A DNA stretch of 24,768 nucleotides. It comes from a virus (taxonomy: Duplodnaviria > Heunggongvirae > Uroviricota > Caudoviricetes). The notes under the pieces were generated by a model. That model was not told the origin of the DNA. It saw only the letters and a program-made list of their open reading frames with translations, and ran no database searches. Within the stretch, counting starts at the first letter, position 1. Each line of letters opens with the position of its first letter. This document shows positions 2,449-17,237 of this stretch, in pieces. The position numbers and the translations under genes were made by a program. The stretch is from positions 1 to 24,768 of the IMG/VR virus record IMGVR_UViG_2778261381_000006. One strand, 5' to 3'.

Positions 2449-2657
2449 TCTAATAGGTTCCTACTTATAAAATCTGTATCAATTATATCAAACAGAGAAC
2501 GGGTTTATGGCGTCATGTCAACTTTGTTCAGGGGAAAAATATTGAGATCACCGAAGATAATTAGTTGTCTTATTTTGGTAAGCTGTGCTGACCATCTTTA
2601 GGTCACATACATGAGATGGATGGGGGTGTGGCATGAACGGATGAAATTCAGTCGCCG

Positions 2658-2686
2658 TTGACAGATGTCAACACTGTGAATAGAAT
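2658..2686 (+). promoter_or_regulatory. Sigma70-type promoter with an operator-like palindrome over the -35
   Basis: TTGACA (2658-2663), 17-bp spacer, TAGAAT (2681-2686). TTGACA-ga-TGTCAA palindrome at 2658-2671. GGAGG RBS then ATG at 2704. Confidence 0.6.
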
Positions 2687-2703
2687 ACTATTATCGGAGG
2701 CGA

Positions 2704-2928
2704 ATGAAGCAACATCCGAATAAGCATATTCAAGCAGCCATTGACTATGCATTAAGTAAAGGCTGGATCTGGGTAGCAGCTGGTGGTGCTGCACATTGTT
2801 TTTGCAGACTGCGATGCGGTAATCCAGAAGGTGAACACAAAACTCACCAAATGAGCGTATGGTCGACTCCGGGTAATCCCGAAAACCATGCCAAACAGAT
2901 CAAACGAATGGTTGATCGTTGTAAATGA
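2704..2928 (+). CDS. Small HicA-like protein (74 aa), putative toxin of a two-gene module
   Basis: Pattern GW...GG.AH.F.R...G......H.MSVWSTP..NHAKQIKRMV resembles the HicA/YcfA fold signature as I recall it. Consensus promoter and RBS. The assignment is tentative. Confidence 0.45.
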   Translation: MKQHPNKHIQAAIDYALSKGWIWVAAGGAAHCFCRLRCGNPEGEHKTHQMSVWSTPGNPENHAKQIKRMVDRCK

Positions 2929-2988
2929 TTTCAAGGCGGCATTAGCCGCCTTTTGCAGAAACTGTCCAACTATCTTCAAAGGAAAACT

Positions 2989-3552
2989 ATGGCGCTTTAT
3001 AACTTCACTCTGACGCTCTCAGGCGTATCGTATGAGACGGAAGGACTGGAAGACGCGCTGTACCAAAACGGCTGTGACGATGCGCTAATTTGCGCATATG
3101 GAAACTCCGTCTATGTAGAATTTGACCGCGAAGCACAATCACTTGATGCAGCTATCGCATCTGCGGTCGACAATATTGAATCAGCCGGTATCGGTGCAAT
3201 TGTTGAATCCGTCGACTCGGCTCTTGTGGGCTTAAGCGATATCGCGGAACTGACAGACCTGTCTCGCCAGGCAGTGGCGTTGCTCAAAGACGGTAAGCGC
3301 GGAAGCGGCGACTTCCCTTGCCCTGTACAACGCATAAAAGGCCAGTCTCCTCTCTGGGATTGGGCTGATGTGGCTGAATGGCTCATGAATAACGGACGAC
3401 TTAAAGAGGGCGATCAAATTGTCCAAAATGCCCGAACTTTGAGTAAATGGAATCTGGCGCTTCGAAACAGCGTCTCGAAAGATTTCAACGAAATAGAGCA
3501 AATTGCGGAGAAACTGATTAAACGCCGCAAAGATATTGCGAAATGCGCATAA
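2989..3552 (+). CDS. HicB-like / HTH DNA-binding protein (putative antitoxin-regulator); start taken at ATG 2989, not the track's TTG 2953
   Basis: AAGGAAAA RBS before ATG 2989. N-terminal region has a HicB-like pattern (Y.FTLTL...NGCDDALI...). Helix-turn-helix-like stretch GLSDIAELTDLSRQAVALLKDG. Lies immediately downstream of the HicA-like gene. Confidence 0.55.
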   Translation: MALYNFTLTLSGVSYETEGLEDALYQNGCDDALICAYGNSVYVEFDREAQSLDAAIASAVDNIESAGIGAIVESVDSALVGLSDIAELTDLSRQAVALLKDGKRGSGDFPCPVQRIKGQSPLWDWADVAEWLMNNGRLKEGDQIVQNARTLSKWNLALRNSVSKDFNEIEQIAEKLIKRRKDIAKCA

Positions 3553-3553
3553 T

Positions 3554-3585
3554 GATGCCCGCCAATTGGCGGGCATCTGTTCTCT
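3554..3585 (+). terminator. Intrinsic terminator after the HicB-like gene
   Basis: GC-rich 10-bp stem gatgcccgcc / ggcgggcatc (loop aatt) at 3554-3577, followed by a T-rich run. Confidence 0.6.
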
Positions 3586-3668
3586 GTAAAGGTGTCTGGC
3601 ATCGTCTGGTTCGTTAACGTTTACTAAACCAATGGTGACAAAAATTAGTTATCTTTGAAAAATAAAGG

Positions 3669-3881
3669 TTGCATGAAAAGAAGGGGTATGCGTTAATAGC
3701 ATCGTTGGTTTGCAAGACAGACCTTATGTAAGCAGTTTTAGTAAAGCAGTCTCAGTTCAGTGTTATCTTCTGATTTCCCTTCTTCGTGAGTCTCCTCCTT
3801 AAGTGCCTAAGTAAGTCCCAATCTATACAGATCAAATTCTCGCCGCACTATGTGGCTCACAAAATTAAGAAGGTAATATCT
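3669..3881 (+). promoter_or_regulatory. Cold-shock gene promoter and long 5'UTR
   Basis: TTGCAT -35 (3669-3674), 17-bp spacer, GTTAAT -10, as in the E. coli cspA promoter. The following ~180-nt leader has cold-box-like sequence (tgcaagacagacc ... aaagcagt ... aagtccc) and an attaagaaggtaatatct ATG end like csp leaders. Confidence 0.6.
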
Positions 3882-4097
3882 ATGTCTAATAAAATGACTG
3901 GTTTAGTAAAATGGTTTAACTCTGATAAAGGCTTTGGCTTTATTTCTCCTGCTGATGGCAGTAAAGATGTTTTTGTACATTTTTCGGCAATTCAGAGTAA
4001 TAATTTCCGCACTTTGGAAGAAGGCCAGCAGGTCGAATTCTCTATCGAGAATGGGGCTAAAGGCCCAGCAGCAGCAAATGTCGTTGCTCTAAGCTGA
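3882..4097 (+). CDS. Cold-shock protein, CspA family (CspB/CspG/CspI-like)
   Basis: [38 protein letters not shown]... is near-identical to the enterobacterial CspA paralogues, including the RNP1/RNP2 motifs. Real start is ATG 3882, inside the track ORF 3786-4097. Confidence 0.9.
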
Positions 4098-4183
4098 TTC
4101 AACGCTGATGATCCTCATTTCTACAATAACGAAGACGGTGTAAGCCTGAGTGGATAGATTTGTAGGATTGTACAAGTTGAATA

Positions 4184-4210
4184 AATTAGCATGGTAAGGC
4201 CATGCTAATT
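4184..4210. terminator. Hairpin in the convergent gap between csp and dnaE-like genes
   Basis: Perfect 11-bp inverted repeat aattagcatgg / ccatgctaatt with loop taagg. Confidence 0.45.
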
Positions 4211-4373
4211 AAATCGACACAACGGCCAGTTTATTCCATAAAAGTGAATTGCCCATTGTGGCGAAATGCGGGGTTGCCGCATGAATAGTCAAAGGCAGAA
4301 GCTAACTGCCGGCATGGCAAAACAAAGTGCGTAAGAGGAGTGACTTCCTCAACAAGCGCCATAATTCTTTATA

Positions 4374-4400
4374 AACCCGCCAACAGGCGGGTTTTCTTTA
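4374..4400 (+). terminator. Intrinsic terminator for the plus-strand csp transcript
   Basis: Stem aacccgcc / ggcgggtt (loop aaca) followed by ttttctttatt; overlaps the stop of the dnaE-like gene. Confidence 0.5.
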
Positions 4401-7400
4401 TTACTTATTTATTGTCTCCGCGATATCAGCCAGAATGGCCTCCAGTCGCTCTCCTTCTTCCGGTCGGAAGTACAGGATATTCGGGTTAAATCCGTAGAAG
4501 ACGGTTGCATCAAGCTCTGGGAAGTACTCCTTACGACCAATCAGATCTGATGGTTTACTCTTATTGTTAAATAGTGCGGTTGAACGACTACCACACGTCA
4601 AAATGTAGGTTGGTCGTACAAGATTAATTTCTTCCCGCATAAAGTCTGTGAACTGGCCTATCTCGTCTTTGGTATAGTCTTTCTCTTTGTCCTTAACCTT
4701 CTTACAAACACCCGTGACATAAAGATCGCCCATGCGCAGATCTCCAACTGTCAGTAGTTTTGCCTTAAAGTCGTCGTATCCGTTCTCCATGAAGTAGCCG
4801 GTACGAGCGTCATTGCCGTTCGCATTGTCCAGAATGATCATGATTTTGGGTTTAATACCAATAGTCGGGCGTATCAACTCCTCACCCAAGCCCATTTCAG
4901 CCGCCATACGTGTCATGAGTACGTTGATTTCGGCAGAACGCTTAGGATTCATTTCGAACGGACGTGATGCTTTAACAGCGTCAATGATGAGATTGCCCAT
5001 CAGCTCAGCCTGGTCGCGCAGTCGTTCAGGATCAGTTGCTGGCAGACTGCCTGGCTCAATTGACGCAAAAGCCCCTACTTTATGAAGCGACTCGCGTACA
5101 CGACTGTTACATGCACGCTTCTCGACCGCTTCATCGAATTGTGCCACTGACTCGAATTTGCCACCAACTTTCTCACGCGCACGCATAATTGCCTGACAAC
5201 CATTTTCAGAACAGCCTTTCACAGCAGAGAATGGCGCATACAGTGCCTGACTGCCGTCTTCGAGTGTGCGGATCTCAATTCGGTTAGATGACACATTAAC
5301 GTCTGGTGGCAATACGCGAATGCCATAGGTCAGCGCATCCTTCACCAGCCCCTGATGCTTATCCTCGCCCAGAATGGTGAGCGCAGCTGCGAAGAACTCA
5401 GCAGGGTAGTGCGTCTTTAGCCACATAGACTGATAACTGATTAAAGAATAAGAAACGGAGTGTGATTTATTGAACTGATAGGCTCCGTTTTTCTCAAATG
5501 CGGTCCAGATCTCCTTCGCTTTCATCTCTGATAGCCCTGGATGTGACGCTGTAACGCGTACTGCGTTTATAGGTAGTTTTGCGCCGTGCTCAAGTGCCTC
5601 TTCGACAGTTTTCAGAGTTCCGTCTTCGCATTTAAAATGTTCCGCACGGTGAATGCGCTGTGTAGTGCCATCTTCCAGCTCAACGTCTATCCAGCCAGCT
5701 TGAGCCTGAACGATGAACTTCTCGCCCATGCTCTTCATTTTTTCCATGTTCTTCTTACCGATTGCGGAACGCACAGCGTCAGCTTCAGCCATTGTGAAGC
5801 CGGCAAGCAATCGAGTCGCGTTCATCGTCTGTTCCTGATAGAGAATCACGCCATTTGTTTCCGCGGTAAGTTCATCAAGAACGGGGTGTAATGATTCCGG
5901 CGTCATAAAGCCTTTGGCGACAGAAACATAGTCATCCAACATGCCTGATTGAATTGGCCCCGGCCGGAAGAGCGCAGTTGTAGCGACGACCGTTTTAAAG
6001 CTCATTGGCTCAATTCCACCACCTAAATCTTTAAGCAGCTTGCGCATTGGGCCTGATTCAAGCTGGAAAACACCTTGAGTGTACCCAGCAGCAAAACCAT
6101 CCAGCACCTTGCGATCTTCAAGAGAAATGGCATCAAGATTGATATCTTCACCTGTGTTCTCTTTTATGTAGCGTTTTGCACTATCGAGCAAATCGAGAGT
6201 TGCCAGGCCAAGCACGTCCAGCTTAATTAGGCCCATAGCCTCGCAGTAACGCTTGTCAAATGCGATACAACGCGCGTCACCACGGCGCTCAACCGGTGTA
6301 CGTTCTGTCAGAGGAACACCTGCTACGATCATCCCTGCCGCATGTCTACCAAAGCCACGCATAAGGCTTTGTAACTTGCAGGCTGCATTGAATGCATCAG
6401 GATATTTTGTTGCGTATTTGTCGAGACTTGCCAGTTGTTCGCGCAGTTCTTCCAATGGAAGGCTATCATCCTCAGCGTTCTTCAGTTCTTTTGATACCGC
6501 CATATCTGCGGACTCCACACCATAAATACGAGCGGTGTCACGTAGTGCAGAGGCTGCGCCCAGGTAGGTGAAGTTCGGAATGCCTGCAACGTAATCTTCG
6601 CCGTAGCGTTCATTCAGATACTCGATCACCTCATGGCGACGTGCCTGGCTGAAGTCCAAATCCGCATCTGGCAAGTCGAGACGCTCAGGGTTGATGAAAC
6701 GTTCAAACAGAAGACCGTGACGGATAGGGTCGACGTTGGTTATGCCTATGCACCATGCCACCAAAGAGCCAGCGGAGGAACCACGACCAGGCCCGACAGG
6801 AATGCCAGTTTCACGGCTGTGATTCATCAGATCGCGTACCATCAGGAAGTAACCACAAAATCCCAGGCGAGTAAGCGTGTCCATTTCGTACTTAAGTCGC
6901 TCAACATAAACCCTGTTCTCAGAAGCCGGTGGTGTGTATCCAAACTCTTTTGTGGTAAGACGTTTACGCAGCCCTGCAACAGCCAGTTTCATCAGCGTTG
7001 CAGGTTCGTCGTCTGCCATCTTGGGCAGTGCTGGTGGCAATTCATGCCAGCGCCATGTACAGGCTTCGATAATGGAGTCCTGCGTTGTTGAGGCCATTGC
7101 AGCTGTTACCGGCACATCCATGCGAACGGAGAAGGCTTTAAGCGCCTCAAGGAGATGGCGGCGACCATTGACGGCGTTATCTCGCTGGTGGGGTATACGC
7201 AGACGATGCGGCTGGTCGATTTTTATGTTGTTCGTAACCATGTGCGCAATGTCTTTAATGTCTGCATCGTCGATCGATTCGTAATAAGCGGGATAGAACG
7301 CTACTGGCTCTATTTTCAGTGCGCTGGCTACTTTCATCGCTCGGACGTTAATCTGGTCGTAGAATGGGGTAGGGTGCGGATAAACCACGCTATAGAAGTT

Positions 7401-7919
7401 GTCTTTCCCGCCCGCTGTAATCAGTGAGCTTATGATTTTTGCAAAATCGTTGCGTTGGAACACGCTACCGATGTCGGAAGTGAGCAGGATGATGTTGCCT
7501 TTGGCATATGTAGAAACCAACTGTTCGAGCGAGAGACGCGGTACAAAGTAGAACTGTTCTCGTGTGTTGGCCACCGTCATTAGTTCGCAGATGTCGCGAT
7601 ATCCTTGCTCATTTTTAATTAGAGCGGTAAACGAGTAGTTACGTCCCCGCTCTAATGATTCCATACATCTCATAGATTCTTTAGCAAGTTTAGCCCGGTG
7701 CTCGTATGTGGGATCATCAACGATATTTAGTTTCACACCACAAATAACCGCCATGTCGTCACCAGCGGCACGTTGTAGTGGAATAACACTCGCAATATTC
7801 ATGCTATCTGCTGAAATTACAGCGGTGTAGCCAGCTTCTCTGGCAATCTTCACCGCGTTTTCTGCTTTTAGAGCCGACTCCCCAAGTGAGAAGTCAGTTC
7901 GAACCATCAGTGCTTTCAT
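4401..7919 (-). CDS. dnaE: DNA polymerase III alpha subunit homologue (DnaE-type, C-family replicative polymerase), phage-encoded
   Basis: 1172 aa. N-terminal PHP-like region. Signature blocks match E. coli DnaE: GFCGYFLMVRDLMNHSRETGIPVGPGRGSSAGSLVAWCIGITNVDPI...LLFERFINPER, YQEQTMNATRLLAGFTMAEADAVRSAIGKK, GAYQFNKSHSVSYSLISYQSMWLKTHYPAEF. Divergent elsewhere, consistent with a phage copy. Confidence 0.85.
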   Translation of the reverse strand: MKALMVRTDFSLGESALKAENAVKIAREAGYTAVISADSMNIASVIPLQRAAGDDMAVICGVKLNIVDDPTYEHRAKLAKESMRCMESLERGRNYSFTALIKNEQGYRDICELMTVANTREQFYFVPRLSLEQLVSTYAKGNIILLTSDIGSVFQRNDFAKIISSLITAGGKDNFYSVVYPHPTPFYDQINVRAMKVASALKIEPVAFYPAYYESIDDADIKDIAHMVTNNIKIDQPHRLRIPHQRDNAVNGRRHLLEALKAFSVRMDVPVTAAMASTTQDSIIEACTWRWHELPPALPKMADDEPATLMKLAVAGLRKRLTTKEFGYTPPASENRVYVERLKYEMDTLTRLGFCGYFLMVRDLMNHSRETGIPVGPGRGSSAGSLVAWCIGITNVDPIRHGLLFERFINPERLDLPDADLDFSQARRHEVIEYLNERYGEDYVAGIPNFTYLGAASALRDTARIYGVESADMAVSKELKNAEDDSLPLEELREQLASLDKYATKYPDAFNAACKLQSLMRGFGRHAAGMIVAGVPLTERTPVERRGDARCIAFDKRYCEAMGLIKLDVLGLATLDLLDSAKRYIKENTGEDINLDAISLEDRKVLDGFAAGYTQGVFQLESGPMRKLLKDLGGGIEPMSFKTVVATTALFRPGPIQSGMLDDYVSVAKGFMTPESLHPVLDELTAETNGVILYQEQTMNATRLLAGFTMAEADAVRSAIGKKNMEKMKSMGEKFIVQAQAGWIDVELEDGTTQRIHRAEHFKCEDGTLKTVEEALEHGAKLPINAVRVTASHPGLSEMKAKEIWTAFEKNGAYQFNKSHSVSYSLISYQSMWLKTHYPAEFFAAALTILGEDKHQGLVKDALTYGIRVLPPDVNVSSNRIEIRTLEDGSQALYAPFSAVKGCSENGCQAIMRAREKVGGKFESVAQFDEAVEKRACNSRVRESLHKVGAFASIEPGSLPATDPERLRDQAELMGNLIIDAVKASRPFEMNPKRSAEINVLMTRMAAEMGLGEELIRPTIGIKPKIMIILDNANGNDARTGYFMENGYDDFKAKLLTVGDLRMGDLYVTGVCKKVKDKEKDYTKDEIGQFTDFMREEINLVRPTYILTCGSRSTALFNNKSKPSDLIGRKEYFPELDATVFYGFNPNILYFRPEEGERLEAILADIAETINK

Positions 7920-16609: not shown

Positions 16610-16696
16610 TGGCGGAGAGTAATGGAATCGAACCATCATCGTTTGCACAATGGGACGGTTTTCAAGACCGCTTGAGCACCATGCTCCCTACTCTCC
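16610..16696 (-). tRNA. tRNA-Ser (anticodon UGA), type II with long variable arm
   Basis: Manual fold: acceptor GGAGAGU/ACUCUCC, anticodon stem-loop GCGGU-CUUGAAA-ACCGU, T-arm GAUGG-UUCGAUU-CCAUU, encoded CCA. The D-arm is irregular. Confidence 0.7.
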
Positions 16697-16990
16697 AATT
16701 GTGTTGTGTGCTCCGTTTCGTGGAGCTAACGGCGGGTGATCAGACCGCACCAGGTTGGACGTATTTCAGCGTTATGCTGTTGCAAGAGAGCCAAATTGTG
16801 ATGGCCGGTGCTGATCTCCGGCATTGCCTACGTTAGCGGCCTTCAGGCAGTTCATCCGCTTGCTTCTACGTCGCACATCAGCCTGTGCATTCACCACAAT
16901 GTTGAGAACACTGGTTGTCACGCTGCAACGCAACATTATATTCATAAATTGGGATATGAACCCGTTACGCCAATGTTCTCAATATTATGT

Positions 16991-17066
16991 TGGTGCCGGT
17001 TAACGGACTTGAACCGCTGGCCATTTGCTTACAAAGCGACTGCTCTACCAACTGAGCTAAACCGGC
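16991..17066 (-). tRNA. tRNA-Thr (anticodon UGU), anticodon stem with two mismatches
   Basis: Acceptor GCCGGUU/AACCGGC, D-arm GCUC-AGUUGGUA-GAGC, T-arm AGCGG-UUCAAGU-CCGUU, encoded CCA. Anticodon loop UUUGUAA, but the stem GUCGC/GCAAA pairs at only 3 of 5 positions. Confidence 0.5.
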
Positions 17067-17070
17067 AATT

Positions 17071-17157
17071 TGGTGGGGAGTGATGGAGTCGAACCACCCG
17101 AGTCGCAATGACAGTAGATTTACAGTCTACACCGCTACCTCTACGGACTAACTCCCC
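17071..17157 (-). tRNA. tRNA-Tyr (anticodon GUA), type II
   Basis: Acceptor GGGGAGU/ACUCCCC, anticodon arm GUAGA-CUGUAAA-UCUAC, T-arm GGUGG-UUCGACU-CCAUC, long variable arm, encoded CCA. Confidence 0.7.
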
Positions 17158-17162
17158 TAAAT

Positions 17163-17237
17163 TGGCGATGGTGGGTGGATTCGAACCACCGACCAGTTGG
17201 TTAACAGCCAACTGCTCTACCGCTGAGCTACACCATC
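17163..17237 (-). tRNA. tRNA-Asn (anticodon GUU)
   Basis: Canonical cloverleaf: acceptor GAUGGUG/CACCAUC, D-arm GCUC-AGCGGUA-GAGC, anticodon arm GUUGG-CUGUUAA-CCAAC, T-arm GGUGG-UUCGAAU-CCACC, encoded CCA. Confidence 0.8.

Follow-up and report, generated by a model that had tools for sequence, protein, structure and literature searches.

The closest described relatives of the locus analysed here are the cold-inducible csp genes of Escherichia coli. The cspG, cspB and cspI RNA thermometers adopt a closed form that is replaced at 10 °C by a register-shifted shorter stem (PMC13271884), and Rho-dependent premature termination has been shown for cspB and cspG (PMC7815308). The gene cspB forms a cassette in the Qin prophage of K-12 and in lambdoid phages (Tritos, 2H10, HannyBb). 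We describe here a homologous unit at positions 3553–4400 of a stretch of 24,768 nucleotides (nt) of viral DNA (IMG/VR record IMGVR_UViG_2778261381_000006; the whole stretch is called the window below), which is part of an SSU5-type phage-plasmid of Escherichia and shares 99.9% identity with Escherichia phage Cyrano (pLF82). This 848-nt region is an autonomous, self-contained cspA-family cold-shock expression cassette on the + strand, and we are roughly 80% confident in what is set out below on the kind of cassette it is, its place on the element and its regulation in the manner of cspA. It contains, besides a structured 3′ element listed further on, the following features:

3640–3697, + strand: cspA-type sigma-70 promoter, read from the sequence by eye and from its alignment with cspB and the copies of Klebsiella
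3704–3881, + strand: 5′ leader of the cspA thermoregulator type, 178 nt, with the Shine-Dalgarno (SD) sequence AAGG at 3870–3873
3707–3723, + strand: cold-box-like hairpin GGTTTGCAAGACAGACC, aligned to positions 4–20 of the Rfam model RF01766
3742–3751, + strand: leader box UAAAGCAGUC, pairing with GACUGGUUUA at 3896–3905 inside the coding sequence (CDS) in a long-range 'closed' helix
3882–4094, with the stop codon at 4095–4097, + strand: csp CDS, encoding a cold-shock-domain protein of 71 amino acids (aa)
4098–4400, + strand: long 3′ untranslated region (UTR), with no terminator after the stop codon
4373–4394, + strand: intrinsic terminator of the csp transcript, a 9-bp stem followed by TCTTTATT

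The whole unit is homologous to the cspB cassette of Qin-type prophages, which is its best chromosomal relative with 71% nt identity over 3687–4395. The likeness takes in the promoter blocks, the cspA-type leader, the CDS (84% nt, 82% aa identity), the 3′ element and the same terminator. The setting differs, since Qin cspB has the Q antiterminator on one side and the lysis genes on the other, and a divergent cspF as its partner. The next chromosomal relative is cspG, with 73% identity over leader and CDS.

The csp protein consists of a single cold-shock domain (Pfam CSD PF00313, 115 bits, residues 5–69 of 71), in which a protein alignment places the RNP1 motif KGFGFI at residues 16–21 and the RNP2 motif VFVHF at residues 30–34. 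It barely passes the NCBIfam equivalog for CspG (NF007378; 146.6 bits for a cut-off of 144), and PGAP names the gene cspG in many RefSeq plasmids. Protein identities to E. coli CspG, CspB and CspI are nearly equal (83%, 82% and 81%, respectively) and, unlike the equivalog match, the 3′ element ties the gene to the cspB type. Within the cold-inducible CspA/B/G/I group the gene is unremarkable, and many plasmids have it annotated already; the grouping agrees with the CspA-family assignment of a first-pass annotation made from the sequence without database searches. That annotation had also called the gene host-type and had proposed a comparison with the host csp paralogues. The comparison gives 84%, 80% and 74% nt identity over the CDS and 68%, 63% and 63% over the leader for E. 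coli cspB, cspG and cspI, respectively. The leader reaches 84–87% identity with copies carried by Klebsiella phage-plasmids, so that 'host-type' is apt for the kind of gene and not for a recent host copy. The closest relatives of the window gene are other mobile-element copies.

The promoter comprises an AT-rich UP-like tract (3640–3668), a −35 box TTGCAT (3669–3674), a 17-nt spacer and an extended −10 box TGc-GTTAAT (3689–3697). The TTGC.. and ATGCGTTAAT blocks are kept in Qin cspB, in Tritos cspB and in the Klebsiella phage-plasmid copy, and we take the arrangement to be like that of the published cspA promoter. A generic consensus scanner did not list the csp promoter; its sole call in the region was a weak, different site at 3635–3663, and its promoter-like sites were no more numerous than those in shuffled sequence. 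GTTAAT does not satisfy the rule of the scanner, which explains the miss, and the promoter call is thus one made by homology, from the alignment to cspB.

The transcription start, G3704, was placed by homology to the cspB and cspG 5′ ends used in PMC7815308: the 5′ ends of these constructs (GTCGGTTTGAAG...) align to GTTGGTTTGCAAG of the window from G3704, which makes the leader 178 nt long. The Rfam model of the cspA thermoregulator (RF01766, gathering score 78) matches 3704–4122 on the + strand with 185.7 bits (E = 9e-50) over model positions 1–428, and scores Qin cspB (158.8 bits) and cspI (112.8 bits) below the window copy. The full-length match, the cold-box hairpin, the leader–CDS helix and the conserved start of the CDS are common to the window, to RF01766 and to the cspG, cspI and cspB thermometers (PMC13271884), and the leader is, on sequence grounds, a member of the cspA thermoregulator family. 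In a consensus fold of eight csp leaders obtained with RNAalifold, the leader–CDS helix has nine pairs, two of them with double changes, and it matches the probed 37 °C structure of the cspG, cspB and cspI thermometers (PMC13271884). One difference is to be noted: the terminator that RF01766 has directly after the CDS (model positions 398–425) is deleted in the window alignment, where a 3′UTR of about 300 nt takes its place. The csp-like promoter, the leader of about 180 nt and its cold-box-like sequence, all proposed in the first-pass annotation, were confirmed.

Homology to the cspG, cspB and cspI thermometers, together with Rho-dependent termination in cspB and cspG, leads one to expect constitutive initiation, weak output at 37 °C and stabilisation in the cold. 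At 37 °C, the leader box at 3742–3751 would pair with codons 5–8 (3896–3905) and close the SD and AUG region in a long stem; the csp mRNA would be short-lived, prone to premature termination and poorly translated. Upon a shift to the cold, the nascent leader would be trapped in an alternative fold, and the mRNA would gain stability and be translated. Csp, which acts as an RNA chaperone and antiterminator, would then add to the host pool from a replicon of about five copies (5.5 per cell; PMC9928086).

The first-pass annotation had considered the cassette to be carried by a mobile element and had named a chromosomal flank as the alternative. The SSU5-type backbone is present in the window (repA, recA-like, exonuclease, gp32-like, uvsY-like, dnaE, cobS/cobT-like, integrase and tRNA genes), in the order found in Cyrano. 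The annotated order in Cyrano is repA, recA-like, exonuclease, gp32-like single-stranded DNA-binding protein (SSB), uvsY-like, 'HicA', 'HicB', an unannotated gap, DNA polymerase III alpha, cobS/cobT-like, integrase and tRNAs, and the unannotated gap is the csp cassette. The 848 nt share 99.9% identity with Cyrano and are matched at 99% or more by 63 plasmid records. Over 40 of the plasmids listed (about 95–166 kb), from E. coli, E. albertii, E. fergusonii and E. marmotae, carry the region at 100% identity; these plasmids are closed and circular and have the same neighbours on both sides. Among complete E. coli genomes, 5,525 records match the region, 90 of them at 99% or more, one at 80–90% and the others at 60–80%; none of these matches above 90% is chromosomal. 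The reading of the region as a chromosomal flank or an assembly junction, in favour of which nothing was observed, has practically no probability left, given the identical copies inside closed plasmids and Cyrano with the same neighbours, the synteny in Klebsiella phage-plasmids and the lack of any E. coli chromosomal copy above 90% identity. The csp cassette is encoded by the element.

The Klebsiella phage-plasmids are SSU5-like and carry csp, on the same strand, at the equivalent position between the uvsY-like gene and dnaE. In pKqs_SB610_2 and phage pJN2-26, the protein shares 93–94% identity with that of the window, the leader 87% and the CDS 81% nt identity (global alignment); pKqs_SB610_2 also has the 3′ element and pJN2-26 lacks it. 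These copies differ from the window in having no HicA/HicB-like pair upstream and an extra ORF (open reading frame) on the − strand before dnaE. The flanking gp32-like, uvsY-like and dnaE genes share only 75–78% identity between the same pair of elements. The leader being at 84–87%, this argues that the cassette diverged together with the backbone and that its non-coding leader was more constrained than the neighbouring proteins. The comparison shows the leader and the protein to be under purifying selection.

The interval between the uvsY-like gene and dnaE (window positions 2450–4400, approximately) is a variable cargo slot of SSU5-type elements. It holds a hicAB-like pair and csp in the window, csp alone in Klebsiella and, in another lineage of E. 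coli, a DUF4365 gene; the slot of Yersinia pestis pMT1 has no csp and contains only two small + strand genes, the hicAB-like pair (252 and 564 nt, the second equal in length to the 564-nt HicB-like gene of Cyrano). The earlier description of the gene as embedded in the replication module is accurate inasmuch as csp stands beside replication genes; its place there is a slot with changing contents. The sequence comparisons indicate that csp is a long-standing accessory cargo and not a recent host capture.

Several observations weigh against this reading of the cassette. The dnaE backbone is found in about 820 plasmids, including Yersinia pMT1, and the csp cassette in only about 100 of them (the plasmid-borne places found overall number only 100), which makes the cassette dispensable. 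We infer cold induction of the window gene only by homology to cspA, cspB, cspG and cspI. Furthermore, since csp is unannotated in the Cyrano record, it is absent from the table of morons in the LF82 transcriptome.

The csp product might serve the programme of the element itself rather than host cold adaptation, by assisting phage or plasmid transcripts as a chaperone or antiterminator of RNA while the element replicates or grows lytically. CspA-family proteins are antiterminators, csp adjoins replication and recombination genes, and the lambdoid-phage cspB cassette sits between Q and the lysis genes. We nevertheless judge such a role unlikely: most SSU5-type elements do without csp, and the gene is not part of a phage operon, because it has its own cspA-type promoter, is flanked by terminators and is convergent with dnaE. 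In addition, the homologous cspB and cspI of prophage Tritos are expressed in a moron-like manner in the LF82 lysogen, 59- and 93-fold above the local background (PMC9928086).

The reading of 3553–4400 as a cspA-family cassette extends to its 3′ end, where the terminator at 4373–4394 does not adjoin the stop codon and instead lies 275 nt past it. The csp transcript is most likely about 690 nt long and runs to this terminator, so that its 3′UTR would include a second, previously undescribed structured domain at 4208–4367, common to cspB-type genes. The first-pass annotation, which had rightly noticed terminators at the locus, overlooked this conserved structured 3′UTR. The sequence 4098–4400 folds with a minimum free energy of −100.7 kcal/mol (z = −5.5 relative to shuffled sequences), and the distal half of the 3′UTR is better conserved with the tail of Qin cspB than the sequence in between. 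The features of this region are as follows:

4184–4210, + strand: P0 hairpin, 12 bp, without a U-tract
4208–4367, + strand: conserved structured RNA element, matched by covariance model R1 (131 bits, E = 8e-26)
4224–4254, + strand: long hairpin P1 (RNAalifold)
4255–4263 with 4357–4365, + strand: P2, a helix closing around P3, P4 and P5 (RNAalifold)
4266–4282, + strand: hairpin P3 (RNAalifold)
4294–4310, + strand: hairpin P4, with the loop AAGCUAA (RNAalifold)
4324–4335, + strand: invariant AAAGUGCGUAAG (alignment)
4335–4350, + strand: hairpin P5 (RNAalifold)

The structure was derived with RNAalifold from 19 non-redundant sequences. Standard pairs make up 96.7% of the alignment cells in the helices and 12 of the 37 pairs have changes in both partners; in 500 column shuffles, the observed values are not attained for any of five measures, and sliding the pairing partners lowers the pairing to 26–57%. 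The joints and loops GAA, UGAAnAGUCU, AAGCUAA (the P4 loop), AAAGUGCGUAAG and AAAGC are invariant. The frequent G-U pairs argue that the structured RNA lies on the csp strand; the opposite strand was rejected as the RNA, as many of these pairs would turn into C-A mismatches. The element is, from its sequence alignment, well supported as a conserved structure. P0 is kept with changed sequence in the K. quasipneumoniae copy and is absent from Qin, where a strong SD sequence (AAGGAGG) and an 11-codon ORF (MKQWLAYLAKS) stand in its place (locus L002, about 3480–3530). This ORF runs into the 5′ arm of P1 and is not conserved in the phage-plasmid copy.

Other explanations of the conserved region were discarded. 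Small proteins were rejected: every small ORF of the region is disrupted by indels, and a 22-codon ORF on the + strand and a 43-aa ORF on the − strand (4231–4362) lose their frames through 1-nt indels in Qin and other homologues. A tRNA-like or hammerhead junction was rejected, as Rfam and ARAGORN report nothing there and the P4 loop AAGCUAA lacks U33. A search of Rfam (4,227 families, E up to 10) with the window and K. aerogenes copies returned no family for the element; the low matches to the 3′ end of sroH, to STnc370 and to a mir-2187 hairpin were set aside as terminator-like or due to chance. The literature, searched for a cspB 3′UTR or small RNA (sRNA) and for the core sequences as text strings, gave nothing relevant to the element.

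Structured 3′UTR and intercistronic elements of enterobacteria and 3′UTR-derived sRNAs share with this element its site, between stop codon and intrinsic terminator, and the presence of covarying helices. The window element differs from that class in matching none of the Rfam families. It is also a multi-helix junction, with a competing helix and with single-stranded joints that are long and invariant, and is closer to a riboswitch aptamer than to a typical stabiliser hairpin.

A scan with the covariance model R1, which was built from the 19-sequence alignment, gives a single copy at each locus and only downstream of cspB-type genes, with no copy behind cspI, cspF, cspG or cspH and none in pJN2-26. 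A second match within the window (16793–16949, − strand; 14.8 bits, E = 0.2) was dismissed as chance. The core pattern GCAGAAGCTAACTGC-N(8–24)-AAAGTGCGTAAG occurs at 26 loci among representative genomes, in Escherichia, Shigella, Enterobacter, Kosakonia, Kluyvera, Phytobacter, Superficieibacter, Pseudescherichia and Raoultella, and in at least 119 viral contigs. A cspB-type gene ends 150–220 nt upstream on the same strand in 136 of the 138 loci with enough flank. Both exceptions are viral contigs in which the upstream part has given way to unrelated sequence: L051 retains only the 3′ end of csp, and in L107 transposase-like sequence extends to a point inside P1, which suggests disruption by insertion sequences. 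A place covering csp and its tail is carried by 1,681 of 5,426 complete E. coli genomes (about 31%). In Raoultella lignicola (L020), the linker between P3 and P4 contains about seven tandem copies of the 8-mer GAAAGCCT, with the helices intact.

In Enterobacter, Kosakonia, Kluyvera and their relatives, the order is a divergent cspF-like gene, the cspB-like gene, the element, sometimes a ynfU-like gene on the opposite strand and lastly a gene for a protein of 75 aa. This protein is 68–100% identical across genera and belongs to no Pfam family; its gene is a conserved ORF (for instance at L006 3192–3419 and L007 3442–3669), on the same strand as the element in most loci outside Escherichia. The gene is absent from the window, from Qin-type prophages and from the E. 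coli and Klebsiella phage-plasmids; in Qin-type prophages and phage-plasmids, the terminator AAACCCGC..GCGGGTTT takes its place directly after the element. A few hundred nt downstream of the 75-aa gene, Rfam STnc100 matches were observed at L006 3606–3801 and L007 4273–4474 (49–53 bits for a threshold of 47).

The same-strand 75-aa ORF, at some loci only about 55 nt beyond the element and with no terminator between, raises the question of whether the element is a riboswitch or thermometer leader of that gene, left as a functionless remnant in the window after loss of the gene. A ligand-binding leader typically shows covarying helices and invariant junctions. However, the spacing to the gene ranges from about 55 to more than 600 nt, a gene on the opposite strand often intervenes, and the cspB-plus-tail cassette is present in those 31% of complete E. 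coli genomes. The element is moreover retained with compensatory changes in Qin-type prophages and phage-plasmids where the 75-aa gene is gone, which argues that its constant partner is the upstream csp, the invariant neighbour. We therefore hold a role as leader of the 75-aa gene to be quite improbable.

An alternative that takes the upstream gene as a mere host is that of a trans-acting sRNA, released from the csp mRNA or made separately and bound by Hfq or ProQ. The rho-independent terminator AAACCCGC..GCGGGTTT follows the element directly in 104 of the 138 loci, invariant single-stranded stretches (the AAGCUAA loop and AAAGUGCGUAAG) could be seeds, all homologues have an A-rich linker ahead of the invariant block and the element persists in Qin and the phage-plasmids in the absence of the 75-aa gene. 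Conversely, the promoter scan shows no promoter-like site between the csp stop codon and the element, no terminator follows it directly in Enterobacter, Kosakonia and Kluyvera, and the U-tail in the window is interrupted (UUUUCUUUAUU). The literature search found no Hfq data for it, and no target search was made. On balance, we regard an sRNA as rather unlikely.

A further reading, which we put at less than even odds, takes the 160-nt domain at 4208–4367, also present behind K-12 Qin cspB, for a new class of structured regulatory RNA: a two-state multi-helix junction that would sense temperature, Csp protein or a small ligand and set the stability, processing or read-through of cspB-type transcripts. 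Its covarying helices surround conserved unpaired junction nucleotides, as in riboswitch classes. The proposal of two states comes from competing pairings. In all 19 sequences, the 5′ strand of P2 can pair either with its 3′ strand (9 bp, duplex energies of −9 to −14 kcal/mol) or with 5–9 nt upstream of P1, the latter extending the P1 hairpin. At two positions, changes in this middle strand are matched in both partners, as judged from duplex energies and by eye, with no column-wise test. The 3′ strand of P2 can alternatively pair with the invariant GUGC, and constrained folding places the closed and open conformers within 0–7 kcal/mol of each other. These predicted pairings suggest a two-state RNA and do not amount to a statistical test. 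In the cis-acting mechanism that we propose for the 3′ end of the csp mRNA, 4255–4263 would have two alternative partners, the bases immediately 5′ of P1 and those at 4357–4365, and the choice would tune the stability or processing of that end; this specific role is speculative and, in our estimation, doubtful though possible.

Some results count against the proposed roles of the domain in the window. Nearest-neighbour energies at 37 °C and 15 °C show no consistent shift between the 3′ conformers, and the Klebsiella lineage of pJN2-26 retains csp and has lost the element. With the 75-aa gene missing here, part of the original role of the element may have been lost. Only the terminator and the convergent dnaE follow it in the window, so that it has no downstream gene to control, as a riboswitch would have.

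The neighbours of the cassette include the dnaE-like gene (4401–7919) and the gp32-like SSB gene (871–1899, supported by a Pfam match), both on the − strand and thus opposite to csp, as the first-pass annotation had stated; its description of the SSB gene as a flanking neighbour did not stand, since that gene is two to three genes away from csp. Between them are the uvsY-like gene (2017–2448, − strand) and the + strand pair annotated as HicA/HicB (2704–3552). The remaining features upstream of csp are:

2704–2928 and 2953/2989–3552, + strand: ORF pair directly upstream of csp, HicA toxin and HicB antitoxin by the Cyrano annotation
3554–3577, + strand: intrinsic terminator closing the HicA/HicB-annotated pair, a 10-bp stem with eight GC pairs and a T-rich tail

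The pair is kept here as 'annotated as' HicA/HicB only, as neither Pfam nor NCBIfam gave a match. The stop codon of its second ORF (3550–3552) just precedes the terminator at 3554–3577, which insulates the csp promoter from the upstream pair. At the other end (4373–4403), the hairpin of the csp terminator is found 6 nt past the stop codon with which the convergent dnaE-like gene ends, and has T/A-rich flanks on both sides; this position and these flanks suggest that the hairpin may end both the csp and the dnaE transcripts.

Two further observations were made on the elements themselves. The window contains four tRNA genes at 16610–17237 on the − strand (Ser-tga, Thr-tgt, Tyr-gta and Asn-gtt), of which Rfam reported three; the annotation of this cluster in Cyrano lists Ser, Thr and Asn only. 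In the K. quasipneumoniae phage-plasmid (L005 3308–5636), a NUMOD4/HNH homing-endonuclease gene directly adjoins the dnaE CDS as annotated, and next to it the PLSDB gene table, which is incomplete, leaves about 1.2 kb without annotation; together these point to a possible mobile intron or intein in the polymerase gene.

Our analysis indicates that a widespread family of phage-plasmids of E. coli and Klebsiella, present at about five copies per cell, carries a probably fully regulated gene for a cold-shock RNA chaperone, kept under selection since the two host lineages split. Such a cargo, being kept under selection, may be a lysogenic-conversion trait that helps survival outside the gut. The csp gene itself is of modest weight, and the undescribed structured RNA of its 3′UTR is the more useful result: it lies behind cspB-type genes in about one third of complete E. 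coli genomes, including K-12, and is found neither in Rfam nor in the searchable literature. Cold-shock regulation has so far been explained almost wholly through the 5′UTR. A conserved 3′ domain with a possible conformational switch offers a testable new handle on the stability and processing of csp mRNA and, if it does represent a new class of RNA, the cold-shock regulon would gain a second sensor, at the 3′ end of its transcripts.

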